Source of the DNA: a virus
Taxonomy: Duplodnaviria > Heunggongvirae > Uroviricota > Caudoviricetes
Length of the DNA stretch: 12,850 bases
Reading direction: 5' to 3' (one strand)
Virus record (IMG/VR): IMGVR_UViG_2684622618_000017
Part shown: in pieces, positions 65 to 12,697 of the stretch
How the letters are laid out: each line of letters begins with the position of its first letter
Numbering within the stretch: position 1 is the stretch's first letter
Program-made: the position numbers and the translations under genes
The notes under the pieces: generated by a model
Databases searched by the model: none
Told to the model about the DNA's origin: nothing
Seen by the model: only the letters and a program-made list of their open reading frames with translations

Positions 65-3008
65 GTGAATATGGCAGTAAAGATTTCAGGTGTACTGAAA
101 GACGGCACAGGAAAACCGGTAGAGAACTGCACCATTCAACTGAAAGCCAGACGTAACAGCGCCACGGTGGTGGTGAACACGGTGGCCTCTGAAAATCCGG
201 ATGAAGCCGGTCGTTACAGCATGGACGTTGAGTACGGTCAGTACAGCGTNNNNNNNNNNNNNNNNNNNNNNNNNNNNNNNNNNNNNNNNNNNNNNNNNNT
301 CACATGCCGGGACCATCACCGTGTATGAAGATTCTCAACCCGGTACGCTGAATGATTTTCTTGGTGCCATGACTGAGGATGATGTCCGTCCGGAGGCACT
401 GCGCCGTTTTGAGCTGATGGTGGAAGAGGTGGCGCGTAACGCGTCCGCGGTGGCACAGAACACGGCAGCCGCGAAGAAGTCAGCCAGCGATGCCAGCACA
501 TCAGCCCGTGAGGCGGCAACCCATGCGACTGATGCTGCGGACTCAGCACGCGCAGCCAGCACGTCAGCCGGACAGGCCGCGTCGTCGGCTCAGTCAGCGT
601 CTTCCAGCGCAGGAACGGCATCAACAAAGGCTACTGAAGCATCAAAAAGTGCTGCCGCTGCAGAGTCCTCAAAAAGCGCGGCGGCTACCAGTGCCGGTGC
701 GGCGAAAACGTCAGAAACGAATGCGGCAGTGTCACAACAATCAGCCGCCACTTCTGCATCCACCGCGACCACGAAAGCGTCAGAAGCTGCCTCCTCAGCC
801 AGGGATGCGTCGGCTTCAAAAGAGGCGGCAAAATCATCAGAAACGAGCGCAGCCTCGAGCGCCAGTAGTGCAGCCTCCTCGGCAACGGCGGCAGGCAATT
901 CCGCGAAGGCGGCCAAAACGTCTGAGACAAACGCTAAGTCCTCTGAAACGGCAGCAGAACAGAGTGCCTCCGCAGCAGCAGGCTCAAAAACAGCGGCTGC
1001 ATTATCTGCCAGTGCCGCGTCAACAAGTGCCGGGCAGGCCTCAGCCAGTGCCACCGCCGCCGGAAAATCGGCAGAAAGTGCCGCATCGTCTGCTTCAACA
1101 GCCACAACGAAGGCTGGCGAAGCCACTGAACAGGCCAGCGCAGCAGCGAGTTCTGCTTCCGCAGCGAAGACATCCGAAACGAACGCGAAAGCGTCGGAAA
1201 CCAGCGCAGAATCCTCAAAAACGGCTGCCGCATCGTCAGCCAGTTCGGCGGCGTCATCGGCATCATCTGCGTCTGCTTCAAAAGATGAGGCGACCAGACA
1301 AGCGTCAGCAGCGAAGAGCAGCGCCACGACGGCATCCACGAAGGCGACAGAGGCAGCTGGTAGTGCGACGGCAGCAGCTCAGAGCAAAAGTACGGCGGAA
1401 TCTGCAGCAACGCGCGCTGAGACAGCGGCAAAACGGGCAGAGGATATTGCATCCGCCGTGGCGCTTGAGGATGCGAGCACGACGAAAAAGGGGATAGTAC
1501 AGCTCAGCAGTGCGACTAACAGCACTTCCGAGTCACTGGCGGCAACGCCAAAAGCCGTTAAGGCCGCGTATGAGCTGGCTAACGGGAAATACACCGCACA
1601 GGATGCAACGACAGCACAGAAAGGGATAGTTCAGCTTAGCAACGCGACCAACAGCACATCTGAAATGCTGGCGGCAACGCCAAAGTCGGTAAAGGCAGCC
1701 TATGACCTTGCTAACGGGAAATATACTGCTCAGGACGCTACGACAGCACAAAAAGGAATTGTCCAGCTCAGTAGTGCAACCAACAGCGCATCTGAAACGC
1801 TTGCCGCGACACCGAAAGCAGTGAAAGCAGCTAATGATAATGCGAATGGTCGGGTACCTTCTGCCCGTAAGGTGAATGGTAAGGCGCTTTCATCGGATAT
1901 AACACTGACGCCGAAAGATATTGGTACGCTTAACTCAACAACAATGTCATTCAGCGGTGGTGCTGGTTGGTTCAAATTAGCAACGGTAACCATGCCACAG
2001 GCGAGTTCTGTTGTTTCAATTACGTTGATTGGTGGCGCGGGATTTAACGTGGGGTCACCTCAACAGGCAGGTATATCTGAACTTGTTTTGCGTGCAGGTA
2101 ATGGTAATCCGAAGGGGATTACTGGTGCTTTATGGCAGCGCACATCGACAGGGTTTACAAATTTTGCCTGGGTCAATACATCTGGTGATACTTACGATAT
2201 TTACGTTGCAATCGGAAATTATGCGACTGGTGTAAATATTCAATGGGATTATACCAGTAATGCCAGCGTGACGATTCATACGTCACCAGCATATTCTGCT
2301 AATAAGCCGGAAGGGTTAACGGACGGTACAGTTTATTCACTCTATACGCCATCAGAGCAGTTTTATCCGCCTGGCGCACCAATCCCGTGGCCATCAGATA
2401 CCGTTCCGTCTGGCTATGCCCTGATGCAGGGGCAGACTTTTGACAAATCTGCATACCCGAAACTTGCAGCCGCTTATCCGTCAGGCGTGATCCCTGATAT
2501 GCGTGGCTGGACGATTAAGGGCAAACCTGCCAGTGGTCGGGCCGTATTGTCTCAGGAACAGGACGGCATTAAATCGCACACCCACAGCGCCAGCGCATCC
2601 AGTACGGATTTGGGGACGAAAACCACATCGTCGTTTGATTACGGCACTAAATCCACGAATAACACCGGGGCGCACACGCACAGTGTGAGCGGTACAGCCG
2701 CAAGTGCCGGAAACCATACTCATAGTGTCACAGGCGCATCAGCAGTCAGCCAGTGGTCACAAAATGGGTCAGTACATAAGGTAGTGTCTGCGGCCAGTGT
2801 GAATACAAGTGCTGCAGGAGCGCACACTCATAGTGTCAGCGGCACAGCTGCATCTGCAGGTGCTCACGCACATACTGTCGGTATTGGTGCTCATACGCAC
2901 TCTGTTGCGATTGGCTCACATGGACACACCATCACCGTTAACGCTGCGGGTAACGCGGAAAACACTGTCAAAAACATCGCATTTAACTACATTGTGAGGC
3001 TTGCATAA
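65..3008 (+). CDS. stf: Side tail fibre protein, lambda Stf / Rac StfR-like; interrupted by N-run 250-299, which shifts the apparent frame
   Basis: N-terminus [17 protein letters not shown]...[12 protein letters not shown] and ...[20 protein letters not shown] match the lambda/Rac Stf N-terminus from memory. Long Ala/Ser/Thr-rich low-complexity region, three tandem 44-aa [15 protein letters not shown]-type repeats, His-rich GAHTHS repeats and a C-terminal [11 protein letters not shown] as in lambda Stf. Track ORFs 65..328 and 201..3008 are one gene split by the non-length-preserving gap. Confidence 0.88.
250..299. other. Run of 50 N (assembly gap or mask) inside stf; not length-preserving
   Basis: Flanking codons are in different frames. 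By comparison with lambda Stf about 28 nt would be expected here. Confidence 0.9.
1488..1851 (+). repeat. About 2.75 tandem copies of a 132-bp (44-aa) repeat inside stf
   Basis: [44 protein letters not shown] repeated with few substitutions at about 1488, 1620 and 1752; the same motif is shared by lambda Stf and P2 gpH. Confidence 0.8.
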
Positions 3009-3875
3009 TGGCATTCAGAATGAGTGAACAACCACGGACCATAAAAATTTATAATCTGCTGACCGGAACTAATGAATTTATTGGTGAAGGTGACGCATAT
3101 ATTCCGCCTCATACAGGTCTGCCAGCAAACAGTACCTATATTGCACCGCCAGATATTCCGGCTGGCTTCGTGGCTGTTTTCAACAGTGATGAGTCATCGT
3201 GGCATCTCGTTGAAGATCATCGGGGTAAAACGGTTTATGACGTGGCTTCCGGCGACGCGTTATTTATTTCTGAACTCGGCTCATTACCGGAAAATGTTAC
3301 CTGGTTATCGCCGGAAGGGGAGTTTCAGAAGTGGAACGGCACAGCCTGGGTGAAAGATGCAGAAGCAGAAAAACTGTTCCGGATCCGGGAGGCGGAAGAA
3401 ACAAAAAACAGCCTGATGCAGGTAGCCAGTGAGCATATTGCGCCACTTCAGGATGCNNNNNNNNNNNNNNNNNNNNNNNNNNNNNNNNNNNNNNNNNNNN
3501 NNNNNNCATCGGGGTAAAACGGTTTATGACGTGGCTTCCGGCGACGCGTTATTTATTTCTGAACTCGGTCCGTTACCGGAAAATGTTACCTGGTTGTCGC
3601 CGGATGGAGAGTGTCAGAAGTGGAACGGCACATCCTGGGCGAAAGATGCAGAAGCAGAAAAACTGTTTCGGGTACGGGAGGCAGAAGAAACAAAAAACAG
3701 CCTGATGCAGGTAGCCAGTGAGCATATTGCGCCACTTCAGGATGCCGTAGATTTGGATATTGCGACGGAGGAAGAGGCATCGTTACTGGCTGCATGGAAG
3801 ACATATCGGGTATTGTTGAATCGTGTTGATACAACAGTAGCAGCGGATGTTGAGTGGCCAGTCGCCCCACAATAA
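3008..3875 (+). CDS. tfa: Tail fibre assembly protein, lambda Tfa-like; interrupted by N-run 3457-3506 with duplicated flanks
   Basis: [34 protein letters not shown]... and C-terminal ...[27 protein letters not shown] match lambda Tfa from memory. ATG overlaps the stf stop (TAATG at 3006-3010). Confidence 0.85.
3218..3745 (+). repeat. Direct repeat: 3218-3456 and 3507-3745 (239 bp each, roughly 13 mismatches) flanking the gap
   Basis: Both copies start catcggggtaaaacggtttatgacgtggc and end gcgccacttcaggatgc; they differ at scattered positions, some changing amino acids (for example [16 protein letters not shown] versus [16 protein letters not shown]). Confidence 0.85.
3457..3506. other. Run of 50 N (assembly gap or mask) inside tfa
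   Basis: N-run flanked by a 239-bp direct repeat at about 94-95% identity. Confidence 0.9.
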
Positions 3876-3883
3876 AAAGAAAA

Positions 3884-3909
3884 AGCCATCGACAGAAATA
3901 TCGATGGCT
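3884..3909. terminator. Bidirectional rho-independent terminator between convergent tfa and the acetyltransferase gene
   Basis: Inverted repeat agccatcga / tcgatggct with an 8-nt loop, A-tract upstream and T-rich sequence downstream; on the - strand the hairpin is followed by ttttcttttt. Confidence 0.7.
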
Positions 3910-3918
3910 TTATGTACT

Positions 3919-4491
3919 CTATTTATACAATACAACACCACTCTTTTTAGTTATATATGTGCAGTTTGATGGTATATCTTTATTTATAAAAGACATTGCA
4001 CCTATTTTTACATTATCCCCAATTTTACGTGATAATCCAATGATGCAACAATTAGCTCCGATATCAACGTTACTACCAATTTTTACTCTTGAACTAGGCA
4101 TATCACCATCTATCTGTCCAATGGTAGTATTCTGTCGTAATACCAGATTTTCACCCGCATCAACAGCAAAATGAACAACAATTCCAGCATGATGGGGAAT
4201 TGTCAACCCTTTTCCAATATTTGCGCCCAATCCTATTTCACAACCAAACTTGTTAATTATTTTACTGTTTAACTTTTTGGCTGCTTTCTTATGTAATTTA
4301 TTACCATTAATATACATTTCGTTAGCCAACCGCCACCAGAAAAGGAAATTCCGGTTACGCTGCTTTTTCTCTCTTAAAAGCCTCCAGATATCCATACGTT
4401 TCCGCCGAATTACTTCATGTTTCCAGAAGTTTTTTAAATTAGTAGAGTTTCCAAATAAAACAAAGTGAATTGCCATTAAGTAAGATAGCAC
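3919..4491 (-). CDS. Hexapeptide-repeat O-acetyltransferase, WcaB/CysE (serine acetyltransferase)-like; AT-rich moron
   Basis: Left-handed beta-helix hexapeptide motifs (IGKGLTIPHHAGIVVH..., IGSNVDIGANCCIIG..., IGDNVKIGAMSFI) and an N-terminal region resembling the WcaB family. GTG at 4491 has a strong SD (aaggag, 6-nt spacer); the upstream ATG at 4524 lacks an SD. Roughly 30% GC against roughly 50-55% for the neighbours. Confidence 0.75.
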   Translation of the reverse strand: MLSYLMAIHFVLFGNSTNLKNFWKHEVIRRKRMDIWRLLREKKQRNRNFLFWWRLANEMYINGNKLHKKAAKKLNSKIINKFGCEIGLGANIGKGLTIPHHAGIVVHFAVDAGENLVLRQNTTIGQIDGDMPSSRVKIGSNVDIGANCCIIGLSRKIGDNVKIGAMSFINKDIPSNCTYITKKSGVVLYK

Positions 4492-4542
4492 GATAATCTC
4501 CTTAATTATTATTTCAGACCACACATGTTATAAGGTTAAGAG

Positions 4543-4571
4543 ATTATAAAATCCTGTTATTTGTTATTCAA
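4543..4571 (-). promoter_or_regulatory. Sigma70-like promoter for the acetyltransferase gene: -35 TTGAAT, 17-bp spacer, -10 TATAAT
   Basis: On the - strand: TTGAAT (plus 4566-4571), 17 bp, perfect TATAAT (plus 4543-4548), about 45 nt upstream of the GTG start. Confidence 0.55.
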
Positions 4572-4604
4572 AAACAATTTTCTGAGAAGGACATACAACA
4601 GCAA

Positions 4605-4638
4605 GTCGCCAGTCACCTTCATCAGGAAATTGGCGACA
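4605..4638. other. Imperfect inverted repeat downstream of U (gtcgcca ... tggcgac)
   Basis: 7-bp arms with a roughly 20-nt loop and no clear T-tract; a weak terminator candidate at best. Confidence 0.2.
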
Positions 4639-4647
4639 TACGTTAAA

Positions 4648-5136
4648 TCAGAGCAGCCCCTTAACTGAGCTGGCCGCGCTATTAAGGGATGATGTCACCT
4701 TATCTTTGAAGCCGGACAGCATATCGCTGAACGATGAGGATTGCAGGCGCTCCCGCAAATCCTCATCACAGCGTTCAAGAGTCAGTGAAAATTCTATCTT
4801 TTTCGCCTTACCGTAGCGATCAAACTCGGAGCGGGTCGTATTCGTTCCGGTCAGGACATACATGCCGTAAATCTGCCCGACGCCATCAATCAAAGGCCAA
4901 GGACGTCCTGTATATGCCTGCGTGGTCAACAACGACAGCGACACTTCGCCACCAGTAATCTCAGGATAAAGAACACCAGAAAGAACGATGCGATCATCAC
5001 CTGCACCGATATACTGCCAGCTTGCTGAACGGTTAACGCGTTCATTTTTCACATGTCGCCAGCTTTTGTTTTGCTGTAACTGCTGATGCGGCAACGTGCG
5101 CAGCTCAAAAACAAACATGCCGTAGATCATCATCAT
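4648..5136 (-). CDS. U: P2-like tail protein gpU
   Basis: MMMIYGMFVFELRTLPHQQLQ...WQYIGAGDDRIVLSGVLYPEITGG resembles P2 gpU from memory. Start chosen at the ATG at 5136 (SD gaggag with 8-nt spacer); the track start at 5142 is only 2 nt from the SD. Confidence 0.8.
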   Translation of the reverse strand: MMMIYGMFVFELRTLPHQQLQQNKSWRHVKNERVNRSASWQYIGAGDDRIVLSGVLYPEITGGEVSLSLLTTQAYTGRPWPLIDGVGQIYGMYVLTGTNTTRSEFDRYGKAKKIEFSLTLERCDEDLRERLQSSSFSDMLSGFKDKVTSSLNSAASSVKGLL

Positions 5137-5148
5137 GGCCATGACTCC

Positions 5149-7961
5149 TCAATCTTTATCGTAAAAACTGCCACGCCTGGCACGGGCGCGCCGTTCCATT
5201 TCTGCCCTGACCATTTCGCCGACCAGTTTCGCCAGTTCGCGGGGATTCTGCGTAACAACGTTATGCAGATGAACATGAATTTCACCGCCAAATCCGGAGG
5301 CAACAGGCTCCCGGTTACGGGAAGTTGCAGGAACTGATGCCACTGGCGATCGTATGGCCTCCACCACCGGGCGGGAGCTGGCCGCAACAACAGGGACCAG
5401 CGCCGGAGGCAGCGGAGCCGGGACCACGGGTGTGATATTAATTGCGGGGGCAGGCTTACTGACCTGCGCAATCTTCCGCTCCTGCCACTCCCCACGAACA
5501 GCAAGTGCGCGGGGCAGGTTCTTAAAGACAATATCGCCGGGGCCAATGCGTTTTTTTGTCTCATCAACCAGCTTACCTGTGTTATCAGCAATTTTGCTGA
5601 GTCTGCGTAGCGTGCCGGTATTGCTGTCTGTGAGAGGTTTGTTGTCTTTGGGTTTATCATCTCCGGTGCCATTGCTATTTCCCGCAGACTTCGGCGGATT
5701 GATTTTCGCAATGTCTCCCTGAAACAGAGCAACCTTGTCCTGAAGAATGGCCGCACGTTGTGCGTCTTCGATTTTCTTGCGCGCCCTTTCCGCTTCATCC
5801 GGAAGCACACCGAGTTTTTCAAGTATCCACGCCAGCGTATCCAGCAACATTTTTGCAGGCGTCAGAACAAGCTGTAACGCACCACCAAGAACGTTACCGA
5901 ATACCTCGCCAGCACTGGTACATTTATCCAGCGTTTCCTTGCTGGACTCCATCGGTGACAGCAGCGATTTAAACCAGTTAAACACCTGGCTGAACCGCTT
6001 CCGATTACGTCAAAAACAGGGCCAAACCGTTCAAAGGTGTCGCGCAACGGGGTCAGCCTTTCCATAATCCCGCTGAACACCCCGGCAAAGAAAGCCCTGA
6101 TAGGATCCCAGTATTTCCAGATAAGAACGGCAGCTCCGGCAAGCGCAGCCACGATAAGACCAACCGGACTGAACAACGCCCCGATAACGCCTCCCAGTAA
6201 AGAAACGGAACCCGTCACCATTCCCCATAGCGCAGGTAACACCCTGACGACATTCATTGACCGGGTAAGAATGTCAAAACCAAGACGCAGGGTGGCCAGC
6301 TTCCCGTAAAGCACCCCAATAACCAGCGACAACGAGCCAATCGTTGCAGTCATTGCCAGCAACGCACCGCCTGCTATCAGTAGCTGGCGCGTCAGTACCG
6401 GATGGGCCTGCGCCAGCGAGGTGATTTTTTCAAGCACCCGCGTGAGCCACTGCGTGACAGAACGCAGCGGACCGTCAACCAGATCACTGATGCGAATACG
6501 AAGACCTTCCCATGCGCTGTCGAGATTTTTCAGGTCCCCATCAAGATTATCAGCCATTACTTTTGCGACGCGATCGGCCTCTCCCCTTGCCCCCTGCAAT
6601 TCTCTGGTCAGTTTTTGCAGCTCTCCTGAACCAGCCGCCGCAACAAGCGTCTGCAAACCAACGAACGCCTCTTCTCCGGCGATGTCCTTGAAGAAGGAGA
6701 CCTGGTCCACCTGTCCGTATTTTTGTGTCGCCTTATAGAGATCAAGCAGCACATCCTCCATCGGGCGCATTTTGCCTCTGGCGTCAGCAACTGACACCCC
6801 CAGCTCTTTCAGTGCATCAGCCGCAGCTTTTGGCGGTGATGCAAGGCGGGACAGACTTGCGCGCATGGCCGTGCCAGCATCGCTTCCGCGAAGACCATTA
6901 TTGGCAAGCATCCCGGCCATGGCCGCCGCTTCTTCAAGACTGATACCAAGTTTTGCGGCAACCGGACCGGTATACTTCATGGTTTCGCCCAGCGCGCGTA
7001 AATCAGTATTGGTCCGGGTAAATGCTGCTGTCAGCGTATCGCCCACCCGGTCCATTTGATCGGCTGTCAGGTTGAACTGTGTGAGGATATTGGAGCCTAT
7101 ATCAGCCGTCTCGCCGAGTTCGACGCCACCTGCCAGCGCCATATTAAGAACACCGGGCAATGCGGCCTGAATGGCCTGCGGAGTAAAACCAGCCATTGCC
7201 AGAAAGCTCTGCCCACTGGCGGCATCACTCGCAGTAAACTGTGTTTCAGCAAGTTTTAACGCCTGCTCACGCAGCGCCTTAAACTGCGGGCTGTTTTTGT
7301 CGATTCGCGTCAGTGCCTGAACGCGGGACATCTCTTTGCCGAACCCGATCGCAGGCTGCAAAAAACGCCCGGCAGCATAGCCGCCCGCCGCTGCCGCACC
7401 AATTGCCAGCGCACCACCTGTTTTCAGTTTTCCCGCGGTTTCCTGCGCGTGCGAATACCGCTCACGCGCCTGCGTTACACGCGCAAGCGCCTGCCGTTCG
7501 CGTTCAAGCTGGTTGTTGTATTGTTCGGTGCGTCTGATGGCCTGCTGAATGGTGTTATCGCTGCCTGTCAGGGAAATGCCGTGGCGTTTCAGCTCTCCGC
7601 CAAGTTCCCTCATTTTCTGAATTTCCCGTGTGCGCGATTCATTCAGGCGTTCAAGCCGGGTGCTTAACTGCTGCATCAGCTTTTGTTGTTTTTCGCTGAG
7701 CACTGTACCCGTGCGTTGTAACTGATTAAGGGCGTTAAGCTGGCGTCGTGCTTTCACGATGCCAGCATCCGCTTTACTGACAGCGTCGCGGGCGCGCTCA
7801 AATGATCGCGCCTGACGCTCGAGATTTTTGATCGCCCCCTGCGTTCGCTGGATGGAGTCACCAAACTGCCCCATCAGGCGGCGTGCGTTTTCGGCAGGTC
7901 GGGTCAGCCTGTCAACGGCGCTGAAAGCGACCCGGATATCAAGAGTCTTCATTGTCTGCAT
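5149..7961 (-). CDS. T: P2-like tail tape measure protein gpT; reading frame disrupted near 5985-6005 (frameshift mutation or sequence error)
   Basis: ORF 5862..7988 (long coiled-coil/Ala-Gly-rich tape-measure-like protein) ends in an implausible Cys/Trp/Arg-rich tail, while the overlapping ORF 5149..5985 in another frame continues with plausible sequence (FNWFKSLLSPMESSKETLDK...GSFYDKD). Start placed at the ATG at 7961 or 7952; the track start at 7988 is GTG. Confidence 0.75.
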
Positions 7962-8468
7962 TCCCGCTGCGAAGTGCCGCCCGCTCACGCCAGCTAACCA
8001 CTTCGCCGGGCGTCATCATGAAGATTTCGGCGGGCGACCAGTTAAAAATAACGGCAATATCTGCCACAAAGTCTTCTATGTGCTCAAAGCACACAACCGT
8101 GATCAGGCTTCCGTCGCCTGTTCGTTCTTCCCGCCAGAGTCCGCACCGCTCAAAAAATTTACGGCAACCACACATAACTGAATAAAGTCACGGGATGCCA
8201 TTTTTTTGATCGTCACTTCATCCAGTCGCGGTGATGTCACGCGTGACAGCAGCGTAAACATGGATTCCGCTTTCAGATTCAGCACATCAGACAGCGACAA
8301 ATCTCGCAGAGATCCAGCCTGCTCAATAGCCCCGGTGATCTCCACATACGTGATTTTTTCGCCGCCTCGCTCAATTGGTTGGGTAAGTTTTACACCACGC
8401 TCACTGGTTTCTTTCACAGTGTCAGTAACTACCGTGTTTTCGGTATCGATGTTTTTCGTCTCTTTCAT
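7939..8468 (-). CDS. E': gpE+E' fusion made by programmed -1 translational frameshift
   Basis: The -1 frame downstream of the slippery site is open to 7939 (FFERCGLWREERTGDGSLITVVCFEHIEDF...), matching track ORF 7939..8175; this is the arrangement known for P2 E/E'. Confidence 0.65.
8103..8468 (-). CDS. E: P2-like tail protein gpE
   Basis: Position between the tube gene and tape measure gene; good SD (aaggag) 6 nt upstream of the ATG at 8468; the frame contains the T6G slippery site near its 3' end. Confidence 0.75.
   Translation of the reverse strand: MKETKNIDTENTVVTDTVKETSERGVKLTQPIERGGEKITYVEITGAIEQAGSLRDLSLSDVLNLKAESMFTLLSRVTSPRLDEVTIKKMASRDFIQLCVVAVNFLSGADSGGKNEQATEA
8151..8157 (-). 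promoter_or_regulatory. Slippery heptamer T TTT TTG (mRNA sense) for the E/E' -1 frameshift
   Basis: Zero-frame codons AAT TTT TTG (N F L) read on the - strand across plus 8151-8159. Confidence 0.65.
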
Positions 8469-8522
8469 CAGGAAACTCCTTTCAGTCAGAGGCGACGCAC
8501 TGCGCCGCCTGCATATTACTTA

Positions 8523-9035
8523 TCAGCCAAGCCCAAGCGCGGAACGGATGCGATCGGGCACAATGTCCTTGCCGTCCTTCCGGTAAATGAAGTTCAGCAG
8601 GTCAATCTCCCACAACGGGCGATCGTTAACACTCAGCTTGTAGTAGGTGTTTTTAATGGCGTAAGTGTGTGATGTGGCTTCGCCCTGTTTGGCTTCCCCC
8701 ATATCAATTTCCGTCACACGTCCGCGCATTTCGACTTCATACAGGTCGCTTTCATCATCGGTGTAGTATTCCCCCGCAAAACGCAGTAGCGTGCCGTCAA
8801 TCGTGCCGCCATACTTCAGGAACAGCTCACGAACTGCGCCCCCCATGACAAAGCTCGCATCAAGCGCGGAGTCGTCCAGGCCGAGGTCAATACTTACCGC
8901 ACCCATCATGCCACCACCCCGGTAGCTGTCGGTTTTGCGCGTCAGTTTAGGCAGGGTGACGGACGTCACCTTACCCACTTCGTTTTCACCATCCACAAAC
9001 AGCGTAAAAAAGCGAAGATGTTTTGGTACAGCCAT
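8523..9035 (-). CDS. FII: P2-like tail tube protein FII
   Basis: MAVPKHLRFFTLFVDGENEVGKVTSVTLPKLTRKTDSYRGGGMMGAVSIDLGLDD... resembles P2 FII; start overlaps the FI stop (TGATG). Confidence 0.85.
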   Translation of the reverse strand: MAVPKHLRFFTLFVDGENEVGKVTSVTLPKLTRKTDSYRGGGMMGAVSIDLGLDDSALDASFVMGGAVRELFLKYGGTIDGTLLRFAGEYYTDDESDLYEVEMRGRVTEIDMGEAKQGEATSHTYAIKNTYYKLSVNDRPLWEIDLLNFIYRKDGKDIVPDRIRSALGLG

Positions 9036-10219
9036 CAGGCACCTCCCAGCACCGCAAATGCGGGACCAAAGAATTCATCAGTAAACGACTGGTAAAGCTC
9101 CATGTCTTCCAGCGGAGGAACGGGCGTATATTTGTAGCGAATACGCACACGCCCCTGACGTAAATTCGTGGTGCTGTTATCCTCGATGTCATACCAGCAC
9201 TCCGCGCCAATCAGTTTCCCGGCAGTAACCAGTGAATCCAGTTTTGCCCTGATGGCACTGATAACATCCTTCACGTTCGCAGGTGTCAGTGGACTGTCGA
9301 TGGTTTCAAACTGCGCTTCCGCAATTGAATCAGCCAGCACCTGTGCGGTTCGGGTATACACCTCAAAGATGTAGGCGTTCGTTTCCGGTGTGCGGTTGCC
9401 CCAGAAGCGGAACCCGTTGCGACGAATAATGGTCGTGATTTCTTTGTTGTTGAGGCTGTTGGCATCACTGTCTTCGGCCTGCAACGACCAGAACACATGC
9501 CTCGACATCCCAAGCACATTTTTAACCGGAACGTTGGACAGCGATTTGTGCCAGCCCTGCTCATGGTCAATGTACGCACGAAGGCCGCACGCATAAGCAG
9601 GCGCGGGGAACGTTTCGTTTTTGCCACTTTTCAGGTTGTAGGCGATGAAGTCAGGCCATAAGAGCATCACCTCACGTTCGTTGAATTTCTGGCGGTAGGT
9701 AATCGCCTCAGCCATCGTGTTACAACCATGACATGTGGCATACACAAACGCGCGCAGTTTACCCGCAATCACGCACAGGGATTTTGTTACCGCCTCCGTG
9801 TCCAGCTCCGGCGCGGCCAGAATACGCGGACGGTATCCGATGCTTTCATCCTGCTCTGCAACAAGCAGCGCATACATCCCCGTATAGCTGCCGTCAGATT
9901 CAGAACCACCGATAACCAGTTGATCCTGCGTCTTACCGCCTTCTTCTTTGTGTTCAGCCACGCGAACGACGATCACTTTTGTGCTCACCTGGTCTGCGAT
10001 AGCCTTAAGCGCACGATAAAGCGTCCCCGTAGTCCCGCATTTTCCCAGCACGTCATTGACGCGGGTCAGCAGTGTGGGCTTGTTCAGCGGGAACAGCTCC
10101 GCGTCCGCATCATCTGCCGTTGCCACGATACCGATAACACTGGAATCAACATCATTAATCGCTGTTACCAGGTCGGTACTTTCCGTAACACGGGCACCAT
10201 GAAAACGAGTTTCACTCAT
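9035..10219 (-). CDS. FI: P2-like contractile tail sheath protein FI
   Basis: 394 aa; motifs ...FPLNKP...GTLYRALKAIADQ...KLRAFVYATCHGC...WPDF...DHEQGWHKSLSNV...GFRFWGNRT...YTRTAQVLADS...YKYTPVPPLEDM match P2 FI from memory. Confidence 0.9.
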   Translation of the reverse strand: MSETRFHGARVTESTDLVTAINDVDSSVIGIVATADDADAELFPLNKPTLLTRVNDVLGKCGTTGTLYRALKAIADQVSTKVIVVRVAEHKEEGGKTQDQLVIGGSESDGSYTGMYALLVAEQDESIGYRPRILAAPELDTEAVTKSLCVIAGKLRAFVYATCHGCNTMAEAITYRQKFNEREVMLLWPDFIAYNLKSGKNETFPAPAYACGLRAYIDHEQGWHKSLSNVPVKNVLGMSRHVFWSLQAEDSDANSLNNKEITTIIRRNGFRFWGNRTPETNAYIFEVYTRTAQVLADSIAEAQFETIDSPLTPANVKDVISAIRAKLDSLVTAGKLIGAECWYDIEDNSTTNLRQGRVRIRYKYTPVPPLEDMELYQSFTDEFFGPAFAVLGGA

Positions 10220-10376
10220 AGCTTCAGCCCCTTGTATCCGTTAAATGATTCGGCAACAATCATCACCCACCACGCGCGTAATCTCACCCCTGCGCCGTTC
10301 TCCCGCCACGGCGACAACAAAAAGCAGTAACCCCCTCCGCACGCACATGCGACCATGCCGCACAGGGAGGGAACAG

Positions 10377-10643
10377 ATGACCGACACCACCATGCAATTG
10401 CTCAGTCAGGGCACAGACCACGTGAAAGTGCCGGATTTTGATATTCTCGCGGAGGGTAAAACGCTGTCAGGCGTGGCAGAGCGCCTGATGAGCCTGTCAC
10501 TGACCGACAACCGGGGATTTGAGGCGGACCAGCTCACCATCACGCTGGATGATGCAGATGGTCAGTTGCAGCTACCGCCACGGGGCGCGCGCCTGACGGT
10601 TCTCATTGGCTGGAAAGGAGAACCGCTGACAGAAAAAGGCACT
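10377..10643 (+). pseudogene. D: 5' fragment (about 89 codons) of P2-like tail protein gpD (Phage_GPD / VgrG-like), truncated by IS30
   Basis: MTDTTMQLLSQGTDHVKVPDFDILAEGKTLSGVAERLMSLSLTDNRGFEADQLTITLDDADGQLQLPPRGARLTVLIGWKG carries the conserved LTDNRGFEADQL motif; SD gggaggg upstream; the ORF runs directly into the IS30 inverted repeat at 10644. Confidence 0.8.
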
Positions 10644-10669
10644 TGTAGATTCAATCTGTCAATGCAACA
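10644..10669. repeat. IS30 terminal inverted repeat (right end)
   Basis: 23 of 26 positions match the reverse complement of 11802-11827. Confidence 0.85.
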
Positions 10670-11765
10670 CCCCTTTCAATTATCTCTTTCGGTGTTTTGA
10701 ACTTCAGTGTCTTTCTCGGTCTGTTGTTTAGCTGAGCAGCAACCAGATCTTCATGTTGAGTATATTGGGCAAGACATGTCTTTTTAGGAAAGTACTGCCG
10801 AATTAGCCCATTTGTGTTCTCATTTGTTCCCCGCTGCCAAGGACTCTGAGGATCGCAGAAGTAAACTTTAACGCCGGTGCTGACAGTAAATTCTAGATGT
10901 CTGGCCAGTTCCATTCCTCTGTCCCATGTCAGTGATTTTCTGAGTTCTGACGGTAAACTCAGGAATTTGTCGGTAAGAGCCTGATTTACTGAGACAGAAT
11001 CTTTGCCCCTGAGTCTGAGGATGATCGTATAACGTGATTTTCGGTCTACAAGTGTGGCTATATGAGAGTTTTTTGTACCTGAGACTAAATCGCCCTCCCA
11101 ATGCCCTAGAGAGCGTCTGNNNNNNNNNNNNNNNNNNNNNNNNNNNNNNNNNNNNNNNNNNNNNNNNNNNNNNNGGCTACGAAAGTACAGCGTTTTATAA
11201 ATTGTCTCAGGTGATATTCGCAGCGTTTTTTGACGTGGTTTTGTTCGCCTTAACCATCCTGATATTTGCTCTGGAGACCATTTCATCTCCAGCTTTTCCA
11301 GAACAAGCTTTCGCAATGGTAAATTTTGATCCAGTAAGCACGGTTTTGGCCTTTTCGCCATTCTGTTGGCTCGGTTATTAGCATCAACAGCTTTGTAATA
11401 GCGTCTGCCCCGATTACGCNNNNNNNNNNNNNNNNNNNNNNNNNNNNNNNNNNNNNNNNNNNNNNNNNNCGATTACGCTGAACTTCACGTGAGATCGTCG
11501 AAGGACTGCGATTCAGCGCAGTAGCTATCGCACGAATGCTCATTTTGGCTGACAAACCAGCTCGTATCTCCTCGCGCTCAGACAGTGTCAGGTGAGCTAC
11601 AGCCCGCTTACGCTCATGGGGTTTTATGCCGCCAGTATCCCTTAACATAGTGAAGATCGTTCCGGGTTTTGAACCCAGGATATTCGCTATTTCACTGAAG
11701 CCTGTTCCGTTCTTCCATAGTTCAAAAACAGAGGCTTTTTCCTCTGCTGTAAATGTTCGTCTCAT
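10651..11765 (-). CDS. insI: IS30 transposase (DDE), interrupted by N-runs 11120-11174 and 11420-11469
   Basis: MRRTFTAEEKASVFELWKNGTGFSEIANILGSKPGTIFTMLRDTGGIKPHERKRAVAHLTLSEREEIRAGLS... and ...HWEGDLVSGTKNSHIATLVDRKSRYTIILRLRGKDSVSVNQALTDKF...QSPWQRGTNENTNGLIRQYFPK match IS30 Tnp from memory. Confidence 0.9.
11120..11174. other. Run of 55 N inside the IS30 transposase gene
   Basis: Roughly 148 nt of coding sequence (about 50 codons between ...YFRS and RRSLGHWEGD...) are replaced by 55 N. Confidence 0.9.
11420..11469. other. Run of 50 N inside the IS30 transposase gene, flanked by a duplicated 9-mer
   Basis: cgattacgc occurs on both sides; the flanking codons (...REVQRNR / RNRGRRYY...) show no coding sequence is actually missing. 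Confidence 0.9.
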
Positions 11766-11841: not shown

Positions 11842-11937
11842 TATTTCTATTTCTATTTCTATTTCTATTTCTATTTCTATTTCTATTTCTATTTCTATTT
11901 CTATTTCTATTTCTATTTCTATTTCTATTTCTATTTG
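11842..11937. repeat. Perfect hexanucleotide microsatellite (TATTTC)15 plus one degenerate unit
   Basis: 15 consecutive exact tatttc units (11842-11931) then tatttg; begins 14 bp from the IS30 end, in an AT-rich intergenic region upstream of the HNH gene. Confidence 0.95.
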
Positions 11938-12130
11938 TTGTGATTTTTTCTTTAGTTCATGTATTTCGATTTGTTTCTGAATTATCGGGGGTAGTGTCTT
12001 CCCTTTTCCCTGAGGCTTATCATGCAGTTATTTTCGCCATCTTGGTATTGTGGAAATACCGACATCCATAGCTTTGGTGAGCTCTGTTCAGGTGGCCAAA
12101 TTCAGAAAACCATTACGGAGGAAGAAGGCG

Positions 12131-12697
12131 ATGGCTAAACCAGCGCGAAGACGATGTAACCGTAAAAGAGAAGATTTAACTGTTAAAAGGATATTTGAGT
12201 TACTAAGTTTCGATAAATCTACCGGGGTATTTAGATGGAAAGTTCCCACTCAGGGAAGGATAGCATTAAATAGTGTTGCTGGAGCTTTTGATTCCAACGG
12301 TTATTCAATGATCATGATAGATGGGCGTAGATATAAAACTCACGTCTTAGTTTTTTACATAACTCATAATCGTTGGCCTGCTGGTCAAATTGACCACGTT
12401 AATGGAATTAGGACCGACAATAGGCCAGAAAATTTAAGAGAATGCCTGCCAATAGAAAATTCAAGAAATATAAGGATCCGAAAGAATAGCAAATCAGGTT
12501 GCAGAGGGGTTACTTGGCACAAACGACAGAAAAAATGGAATGTTAGGCTAGGATTCCATGGCAAGAGTAAACACTTCGGATGCTTTGATGATCTGGAGTT
12601 AGCGGTACTAGTTGCTGAAGAAGCCCGAGATAAGTATTACGGTGATTTTTCCGGCAACGAAAGGAGCACTTATGCGAATCTATCGAAGGAAATGTAA
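12131..12697 (+). CDS. HNH homing-endonuclease-like protein with C-terminal AP2-type DNA-binding domain
   Basis: HNH signature ...[37 protein letters not shown] and AP2-like [54 protein letters not shown] ggaggaag upstream of the ATG at 12131. About 38% GC. The first 9 residues MAKPARRRC equal the lambda NinG N-terminus as recalled. Confidence 0.75.

Follow-up and report, generated by a model that had tools for sequence, protein, structure and literature searches.

The acetyltransferase gene and its place in the prophage

The stretch of viral DNA analysed here (IMG/VR virus record IMGVR_UViG_2684622618_000017, 12,850 nucleotides, hereafter the window) carries an intact open reading frame (ORF) on its minus strand at positions 3919-4491, a 573-nt coding sequence (CDS) with a GTG start that encodes a putative acetyltransferase of 190 amino acids (aa). 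The same CDS and start are annotated in RefSeq O157 genomes, with the product named "serine O-acetyltransferase" (ECs2638; WP_000954203.1), and a P1-like copy has ATG at the codon equivalent to the GTG of the window. An earlier sequence-only reading had described a single AT-rich gene with its own expression signals, and this description agrees with what we find. The GC content is 34% across positions 3876-4647, compared to 49% in the tail-fibre assembly gene (tfa) on one side, 50% in gpU on the other, and 53-56% in the tail genes T, FI and FII. Comparison with three diverged alleles gave ratios of nonsynonymous to synonymous substitution (dN/dS) of 0.11-0.15 (about 0.13), from which it follows that the ORF is a constrained coding gene under purifying selection. 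The maximum Kyte-Doolittle hydropathy of the product is 1.1 (19-residue window), so it contains no membrane segment.

The expression signals were examined on the minus strand. A strong Shine-Dalgarno sequence, AAGGAG (4503-4498), can be read directly 6 nt before the GTG and is kept both in the allele of an O55:H7 prophage (strain DEC5B) and in a 71%-identical allele found in other E. coli prophages (P0007-type). Further upstream, a consensus scan found the sigma-70-type promoter TTGAAT-17-TATAAT (4571-4543), with 10 of 12 positions matching. Sites of this kind occur at chance level (four found, 3.8 expected in shuffled sequences), so the hexamers alone prove little; support for the promoter comes instead from conservation, as positions 4492-4571 are 96% identical between alleles whose CDSs are 70% identical. 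Past the stop codon, the terminator scan called a strong intrinsic terminator at 3911-3882 (13-bp stem, 4-nt loop, then TTCTTTTT), which is 100% identical between diverged alleles. This hairpin had been described as bidirectional, which holds for the acetyltransferase strand and is weak at best for the other: no plus-strand terminator was called by the scan at 3882-3911, where the downstream plus-strand letters are ATGTACTC. Since it has a promoter and a terminator of its own, a deviant GC content and a presence-or-absence pattern among near-identical prophages (see below), the gene is a moron, that is, a real, constrained and autonomous cargo gene.

The host element was identified from the chromosomes that carry it. 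Many O157 chromosomes match positions 3700-4800 at 100% identity, and in the Sakai annotation the region is "prophage Sp13, P2-like" and the acetyltransferase gene is ECs_2638. Two isolated phages of the Peduoviridae, P88 and 500465-2, match the tail block at 94-97% identity and have the same strand arrangement. The tape-measure gene is broken into two overlapping ORFs (5149-5985 and 5862-7988), annotated as a pseudogene in Sakai, and gpD (plus strand) is truncated by an IS30 insertion in the region 10245-11765. On these matches, the element is the defective P88-like, P2-family (Peduoviridae) prophage Sp13 of E. coli O157:H7. Despite the broken tape-measure and gpD genes, the acetyltransferase gene is intact and 100% identical across many O157 genomes, and about 9% of complete E. 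coli genomes (495 of 5,426), the O157:H7 lineage included, carry the junction of tfa, acetyltransferase gene and gpU.

On the left of the acetyltransferase gene lies the 3' part of tfa (3507-3875, plus strand; equivalent to P2 gene G; Pfam Caudo_TAP, 1.7e-40), whose stop at 3875 and the acetyltransferase stop at 3919 are convergent and 43 nt apart. On the right lies gpU (4648-5142, minus strand; annotated "phage tail protein", Pfam Phage_P2_GpU in homologous loci), with which the FI-FII-E-E'-T-U block ends. The gene had been said to be opposite in orientation to its flanking structural genes, which is correct with respect to tfa and incorrect for gpU, T, E/E', FII and FI, all of which share its minus strand; gpD is on the plus strand again.

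In phage P2, fun(Z) stands directly after G on the opposite strand, which is the relation of the acetyltransferase gene to tfa. The likeness extends to the convergent orientation, the gene's own signals, its non-essential nature and its variability between related phages. The two genes differ in that they have no sequence relation, Fun(Z) being a 528-aa protein of another kind, and in the far neighbour, which is FI in P2 and gpU in the window. The claim that the gene fills the Z/fun slot between the tail-fibre assembly gene and FI is thus right in place and orientation on the fibre side, where the gene lies directly downstream of the assembly gene and convergent with it, and wrong in the literal sense on the far side, where the co-oriented gpU is found in the window in place of the pF promoter and the FI sheath gene. 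The presence of gpU there is a trait of P88-like phages, in which the FI-U block is on the other strand. An insertion sequence (IS)-mediated inversion in O157 was considered as an explanation for this neighbour and rejected, as intact prophages, P88 and 500465-2 have the same layout. Homologues recur at the same prophage position: the 71%-identical P0007 is in the same layout of gpU, acetyltransferase gene and tfa in other E. coli prophages, the intact-looking O55:H7 prophage of DEC5B repeats the layout of the window, and in canonical P2-like prophages, in which the FI-side bound is present, a 67%-identical homologue (P0009) separates G from FI and is antisense to each of them. Judged by gene order, then, the acetyltransferase gene occupies, in a P88-like backbone, the cargo slot on the tail-fibre side, which is the equivalent of the fun(Z) position.

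A hexapeptide-repeat enzyme distinct from CysE

Searches with protein profiles placed the product in the hexapeptide (left-handed beta-helix) acyltransferase superfamily. A profile of the family matched serine acetyltransferases (SATs) in the PDB at 4e-24 and LacA, Maa, LpxD and GlmU at 1e-13 to 1e-11; the single sequence matched Pfam Hexapep at 2e-5 (24.4 bits, below the gathering cut-off of 27), and most homologues have precomputed PF00132/PF14602 matches. The best NCBIfam match was EpsC (2e-21, 76.2 bits, cut-off 150), followed by the CysE model TIGR01172 (5e-17, 62.4 bits, cut-off 210.65), two WcaB models (1e-14, 54.4 and 55.8 bits, cut-offs 194.65 and 196) and the CysE model PRK11132 (36.6 bits, cut-off 397), all of them below their cut-offs. 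Among phage families the protein is a full-length member of PHROG 2154 (2.9e-87), a family without functional annotation. A database search returned 336 relatives (E <= 1e-5), nearly all unnamed or called "serine acetyltransferase", and an alignment of 35 sequences displays the motifs WWRLA, H-H-x-G-I-V, RQNTTIG, IGDNVxIGA and GAMSF.

The sequence-only reading had assigned the gene to a cytoplasmic WcaB/CysE family, and this assignment survives at the level of the clade and not at that of the named enzymes. Like the window protein, WcaB and EpsC are SAT-like hexapeptide enzymes that are short, of similar length and helical over a small N-terminal part, and the WcaB motif (acid-x-I...IG...I-x-H-H-x-G-I-V) is the pattern seen here. 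In contrast to them, the window gene is a single gene on mobile elements, its neighbours being phage tail genes and not a colanic-acid or exopolysaccharide cluster, and its scores are under the equivalog cut-offs.

The annotation of the gene implies a genuine serine O-acetyltransferase, which as an auxiliary metabolic gene would raise the supply of O-acetylserine and cysteine or perturb CysK complexes. The name is carried in RefSeq and phage records, and the nearest solved structures by both sequence and fold are CysE enzymes; residues of the catalytic centre are also retained, His100 aligning with the catalytic His158 of CysE and Glu85 with its catalytic Asp, both conserved in the 35-sequence alignment. 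The residues that bind serine are not: Asp157 of CysE corresponds to Pro99, and the positions of Arg192 and His193, which hold the serine carboxylate, fall in a non-conserved loop that is the most variable of the family in that alignment. CysE has an N-terminal domain of about 140 residues and a C-terminal CysK-binding tail. In the much shorter window protein, only profile positions 53-180 align, to residues ~110-262 of CysE chains of 242-336 aa (the last helices and the beta-helix), and neither the large N-terminal domain nor the tail has a counterpart. An AlphaFold2 model built on the 35 sequences confines the helical N-terminal domain to residues 2-82. Together with scores so far under both CysE cut-offs, these features indicate that the protein is not a serine acetyltransferase, and we consider the metabolic explanation very improbable. 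The best homologues are phage- and plasmid-borne, and are not housekeeping CysE or LacA enzymes.

Confidence in the model (predicted local distance difference test, pLDDT) was ~90 over the N-terminal helices and ~55 over the beta-helix, and the best Foldseek matches in the PDB were again SATs, although weak (E 3e-3, TM ~0.5); no substrate was inferred from structure for these two reasons. The fold search therefore agrees with the profile search as far as the SAT/hexapeptide fold is concerned. As predicted from profiles and hydropathy, the product is a soluble, acetyl-CoA-dependent O-acetyltransferase with a left-handed beta-helix, belonging to the SAT/WcaB clade; it is likely to be active and is presumably trimeric.

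Variable cargo, fibre linkage and the relatives of the gene

To survey the slot, 80 IMG/VR viral-contig loci with gpU at least 99% identical were inspected downstream of gpU; for one of them the gpU call was not usable. The acetyltransferase gene was present in 33 of these 80 gpU-anchored loci. About 35 resembled P88 in having a Hin/Cin-type invertase in the slot together with a flipped fibre tip and tfa', and in seven the slot held a 412-aa gene, also of 34% GC, which in locus L206 (5592-6830) replaces window positions 3876-4592. The slot was near-empty in two loci (253 and 458 bp); five had too little sequence past gpU, and two had no tfa downstream. Homology of all slot types ends at window position 4642, 6 nt past the gpU stop. 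The gpU-proximal edge of the slot (4593-4642) contains an inverted repeat, GTCGCCA...TGGCGAC; this edge is common to the variant with the 412-aa gene and absent from the invertase-type and empty ones. The two flanks of the 412-aa gene are homology to window 4642-4593 and a tfa of 89% identity. The protein it encodes matches Pfam Glyco_transf_9, the GT9 heptosyltransferase family, with 27.4 bits (gathering cut-off 22), and there are weak matches to lipopolysaccharide (LPS) heptosyltransferase I and RfaQ.

Two further genes lie in the region. Where the prophage is intact (L003:7485-8387 in O55:H7 DEC5B and L001:18687-19589 in O157 PV15-279), a gene for a 300-aa macro-domain protein (ADP-ribose-binding type) separates the fibre gene from tfa, and Gifsy-1 has a similar pair of fibre and macro-domain genes. 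Among the gpU-anchored loci, the macro-domain gene was seen only with the acetyltransferase cargo (11/32 vs 0/42), possibly through shared ancestry, and was not used as evidence. In P88-like E. coli prophages with the 71% allele, a class-I methyltransferase gene (L168:6937-7605) lies between a truncated and a full tfa and adjoins the acetyltransferase gene, representing a second small-enzyme cargo in the same region.

Linkage of the acetyltransferase gene to the tail fibre was evident from the P1-like phage-plasmids, which carry copies 88-91% identical. In one of them, JL22, it is flanked by the two chaperone genes of the invertible fibre segment, which are convergent, and the fibre tip, tfa and acetyltransferase ORF are 91-92% identical in nucleotide sequence to window 1919-4490, with homology stopping exactly at the start codon. 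Identity of the acetyltransferase tracks that of the adjacent tfa (rho 0.89 over 65 unique pairs, which are not independent). The fibre tip is 67% identical to gp37 of T4, whose receptors are OmpC and LPS. As indicated by these comparisons, the acetyltransferase gene, fibre tip and tfa move as one recombination unit between P2-like and P1-like phages. Comparison of the window allele with the 71%-identical P0007-type allele revealed an uneven distribution of divergence. Nucleotide identity is 94-96% over the promoter, 5' untranslated region and first ~50 nt of the CDS (window 4441-4590) and 94-100% over the last ~70 nt and the terminator (3876-3990), and it falls to 44-72% in the middle of the CDS (3991-4440), with the lowest values at residues ~101-134; gpU of the same loci is 67% identical. 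This pattern, in which the expression frame is conserved and the catalytic core inside it divergent, suggests either that the signals are strongly constrained or that the ends of the gene have recombined repeatedly.

Travel with the fibre tip and tfa could also mean that the enzyme serves the virion, modifying the fibre, its chaperone or an assembly intermediate. Co-inheritance of the three across P1-like and P2-like phages would fit such a role, as would the position of the gene in P88-like phages, co-oriented downstream of gpU. In canonical P2-like prophages, on the other hand, the gene is antisense to both neighbouring late operons, and it has a sigma-70 promoter and 34% GC. It is also dispensable, being absent from P88, 500465-2 and many prophages, it is intact in Sp13 although the tape-measure and D genes are broken, and relatives are also found at plasmid and chromosomal sites that lack phage genes. 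A role in the virion is hence improbable.

The relatives were found in several settings. Those of the Citrobacter phage phiNP and the Hafnia phage yong2 (35-44% identity) are convergent with tfa and adjoin it, as in the P2-like and P1-like phages, and so do those in Gilliamella, Buttiauxella and Salmonella prophages. Others adjoin an Abi gene at one end (int or cos) of P2-like phages, or hok and the chromosomal copA at a prophage end. Universal tfa adjacency in the family was considered and rejected, since in a sampling of one genome per species only 5 of 84 homologues are tfa-adjacent; for this reason the claim of tfa linkage is limited to the phage-borne subfamilies. Chromosomal relatives of Halopseudomonas and Pseudomonas (41-46% identity) lie between hldE-msbA-kinase and a cluster of NeuB, GNAT, GT28 and cytidylyltransferase-aminotransferase genes, and that of Ca. 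Pelagadaptatus lies between hldE and an AT3-SGNH O-acyltransferase. By their gene content, these sites in marine Pseudomonadales are LPS-core and nonulosonic-acid loci.

Some of these settings would equally suit an anti-phage or anti-competitor function apart from surface glycans, in which the enzyme acetylates a small molecule, a nucleotide-sugar that invading phages use, a toxin or antibiotic, or a phage component, in the manner of the single-gene defence cargo of P2 hotspots (old, tin, fun). The slot is the site of fun(Z) in P2, which blocks T5, and hotspots of the P2 family are rich in defence genes (PMC9122126, PMC13586616). Relatives adjoin Abi genes, toxin-antitoxin pairs and integrases on mobile elements, and the plasmid copies without fibres fit a generic protective role. 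Nevertheless, a search of PADLOC-DB 2.0 gave no defence model for the acetyltransferase (0 families, E up to 1) or for the alternative cargo proteins, no xenobiotic model (CatB/Vat) was among the NCBIfam matches, and the glycosyltransferase-like alternative cargo and the relatives in LPS loci point to glycans. A protective function of this other kind is a possibility that we regard as real and rather unlikely.

The remainder of the window bears on its assembly. The window is a scaffold, with runs of 50-55 N at 250-299, 3457-3506, 11120-11174 and 11420-11469, and the contig of the acetyltransferase gene spans 3507-11119. Two tfa segments, 3507-3875 and 3008-3456, the latter from another contig of the scaffold, give the appearance of a duplication, which was rejected: O55:H7 DEC5B has a single tfa, to which both segments map (3507-3875 at L003 8606-8974), so they are the same gene and the duplication is an overlap of contig ends across the 50-N gap. 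The left contig (300-3456), which may not truly adjoin the Sp13 contig, encodes a lambdoid Stf-type fibre (Pfam phage_tail_N, Phage_fiber_2 and Collar) with a long Ala/Ser-rich stretch; a 132-nt unit repeated 2.6 times at 1486-1831 corresponds to the Phage_fiber_2 repeats. A match to Rfam IS009 (RF02111; 191 bits, gathering cut-off 117) at 3640-3838 on the plus strand is wholly within the 3' half of tfa. After the IS30 element, a separate contig carries a perfect hexanucleotide array, (TATTTC) x 15.8, at 11842-11936, immediately upstream of an ORF (12050-12697) that encodes an HNH_3 domain and a weak AP2 domain, and this flank has no match to Sakai Sp13.

A candidate enzyme of lysogenic conversion

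Of the functions considered, the one we put at about an even chance is that the product is an envelope-glycan O-acetyltransferase used for lysogenic conversion. This proposal was drawn from the clade of the enzyme, the GT9-like alternative cargo, the relatives in LPS loci and the linkage to a gp37-like fibre tip. In this mechanism the gene's own sigma-70 promoter would drive transcription without dependence on the late operons of the phage, and its terminator would stop the transcript before it ran antisense into tfa. The enzyme would then O-acetylate a sugar of a cell-envelope glycan or of its cytoplasmic precursor, the best guess for the acceptor being the LPS core or another widely shared envelope glycan. 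Acetylation would alter the surface read by tail fibres of the T4-gp37/Stf type and by other phages, and the outcome could be receptor masking, superinfection exclusion or a serological change. The probability beyond this proposal and the virion, metabolic and non-glycan defence functions set out above is left for other readings.

A comparison had been drawn with NeuO, which is carried by prophage CUS-3 and acts on the K1 capsule, and it is sound in principle, as both are prophage-carried hexapeptide-repeat O-acetyltransferases and, by analogy, cargo of lysogenic conversion. It does not extend to phase variation, since Tandem Repeats Finder (TRF) found no repeat array in 3876-4647, heptanucleotide repeats of the NeuO type included. 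NeuD/PglB/VioB was the sole sialic-acid-cluster acetyltransferase model among the NCBIfam matches (31 bits, cut-off 161); NeuO itself lay outside this comparison. Moreover, the K1 capsule cannot be the target of the enzyme, as P1-like plasmids carry the gene and so do strains of many serotypes.

Several points weigh against a glycan-directed function. Homologues without a nearby fibre occur on the EAF/bfp plasmids of enteropathogenic E. coli (EPEC), on IncFII-colicin plasmids and next to an integrase that is accompanied by a toxin-antitoxin pair, and tfa-adjacent homologues are the small fraction given above (5/84). Both the correlation between acetyltransferase and tfa identities and the locus counts of the slot survey are inflated by shared ancestry, and the end of a tail-fibre operon is a generic hotspot for morons, so that a gene may lie beside tfa without being functionally linked to it. 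The GT9 assignment of the alternative cargo is weak (27 bits), and the substrate of the acetyltransferase is not readable from a sequence whose structural model is weak over the beta-helix. We know of no report that the LPS core of E. coli or the O157 O-antigen is O-acetylated. Our literature search found no functional study of any family member (Nilsson 2004, on the Z/fun region, lay outside that search). The paper on JL22 states that it is unknown why the gene is present (PMC9603915), a paper on C. rodentium prophages lists it as "fitness" cargo (PMC6456863), and the word acetyltransferase is absent from the main text of two papers on P2/P4 hotspots (PMC9122126, PMC13586616).

A broader and more tentative view, which we hold to be rather unlikely, is that the acetyltransferase and the GT9-like gene found in its place between identical flanks are interchangeable "receptor-editing" modules, each physically linked to a T4-gp37/Stf-type fibre tip and tfa, in a cassette moving among P2-, P1-, Mu- and lambda-type phages. 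A new receptor specificity would then arrive with the cognate edit of the LPS core, masking the receptor in the lysogen, and the mosaic of the alleles, with ends 94-100% and a middle 44-72% identical, would reflect recombinational swapping of acceptor specificity.

Surface-editing genes of prophages decide which phages, colicins and antibodies still recognise the lysogen. Prophage-borne acetyltransferase morons are already known as a kind, and the gene described here is an uncharacterised new example, which would be one more uncharacterised moron if the enzyme had no detectable effect. Its cassette-like linkage to fibre specificity and the glycosyltransferase-like nature of the alternative cargo make it a good experimental target. 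If the enzyme acetylates the LPS core or another shared envelope glycan, this would explain why the gene has stayed intact in a decaying prophage, and it would represent a cytoplasmic, single-gene route of lysogenic conversion beside the gtr and oac systems. It would also bear on the prediction of host range in phage therapy and on the re-annotation of several hundred "serine acetyltransferase" proteins (the 336 relatives).

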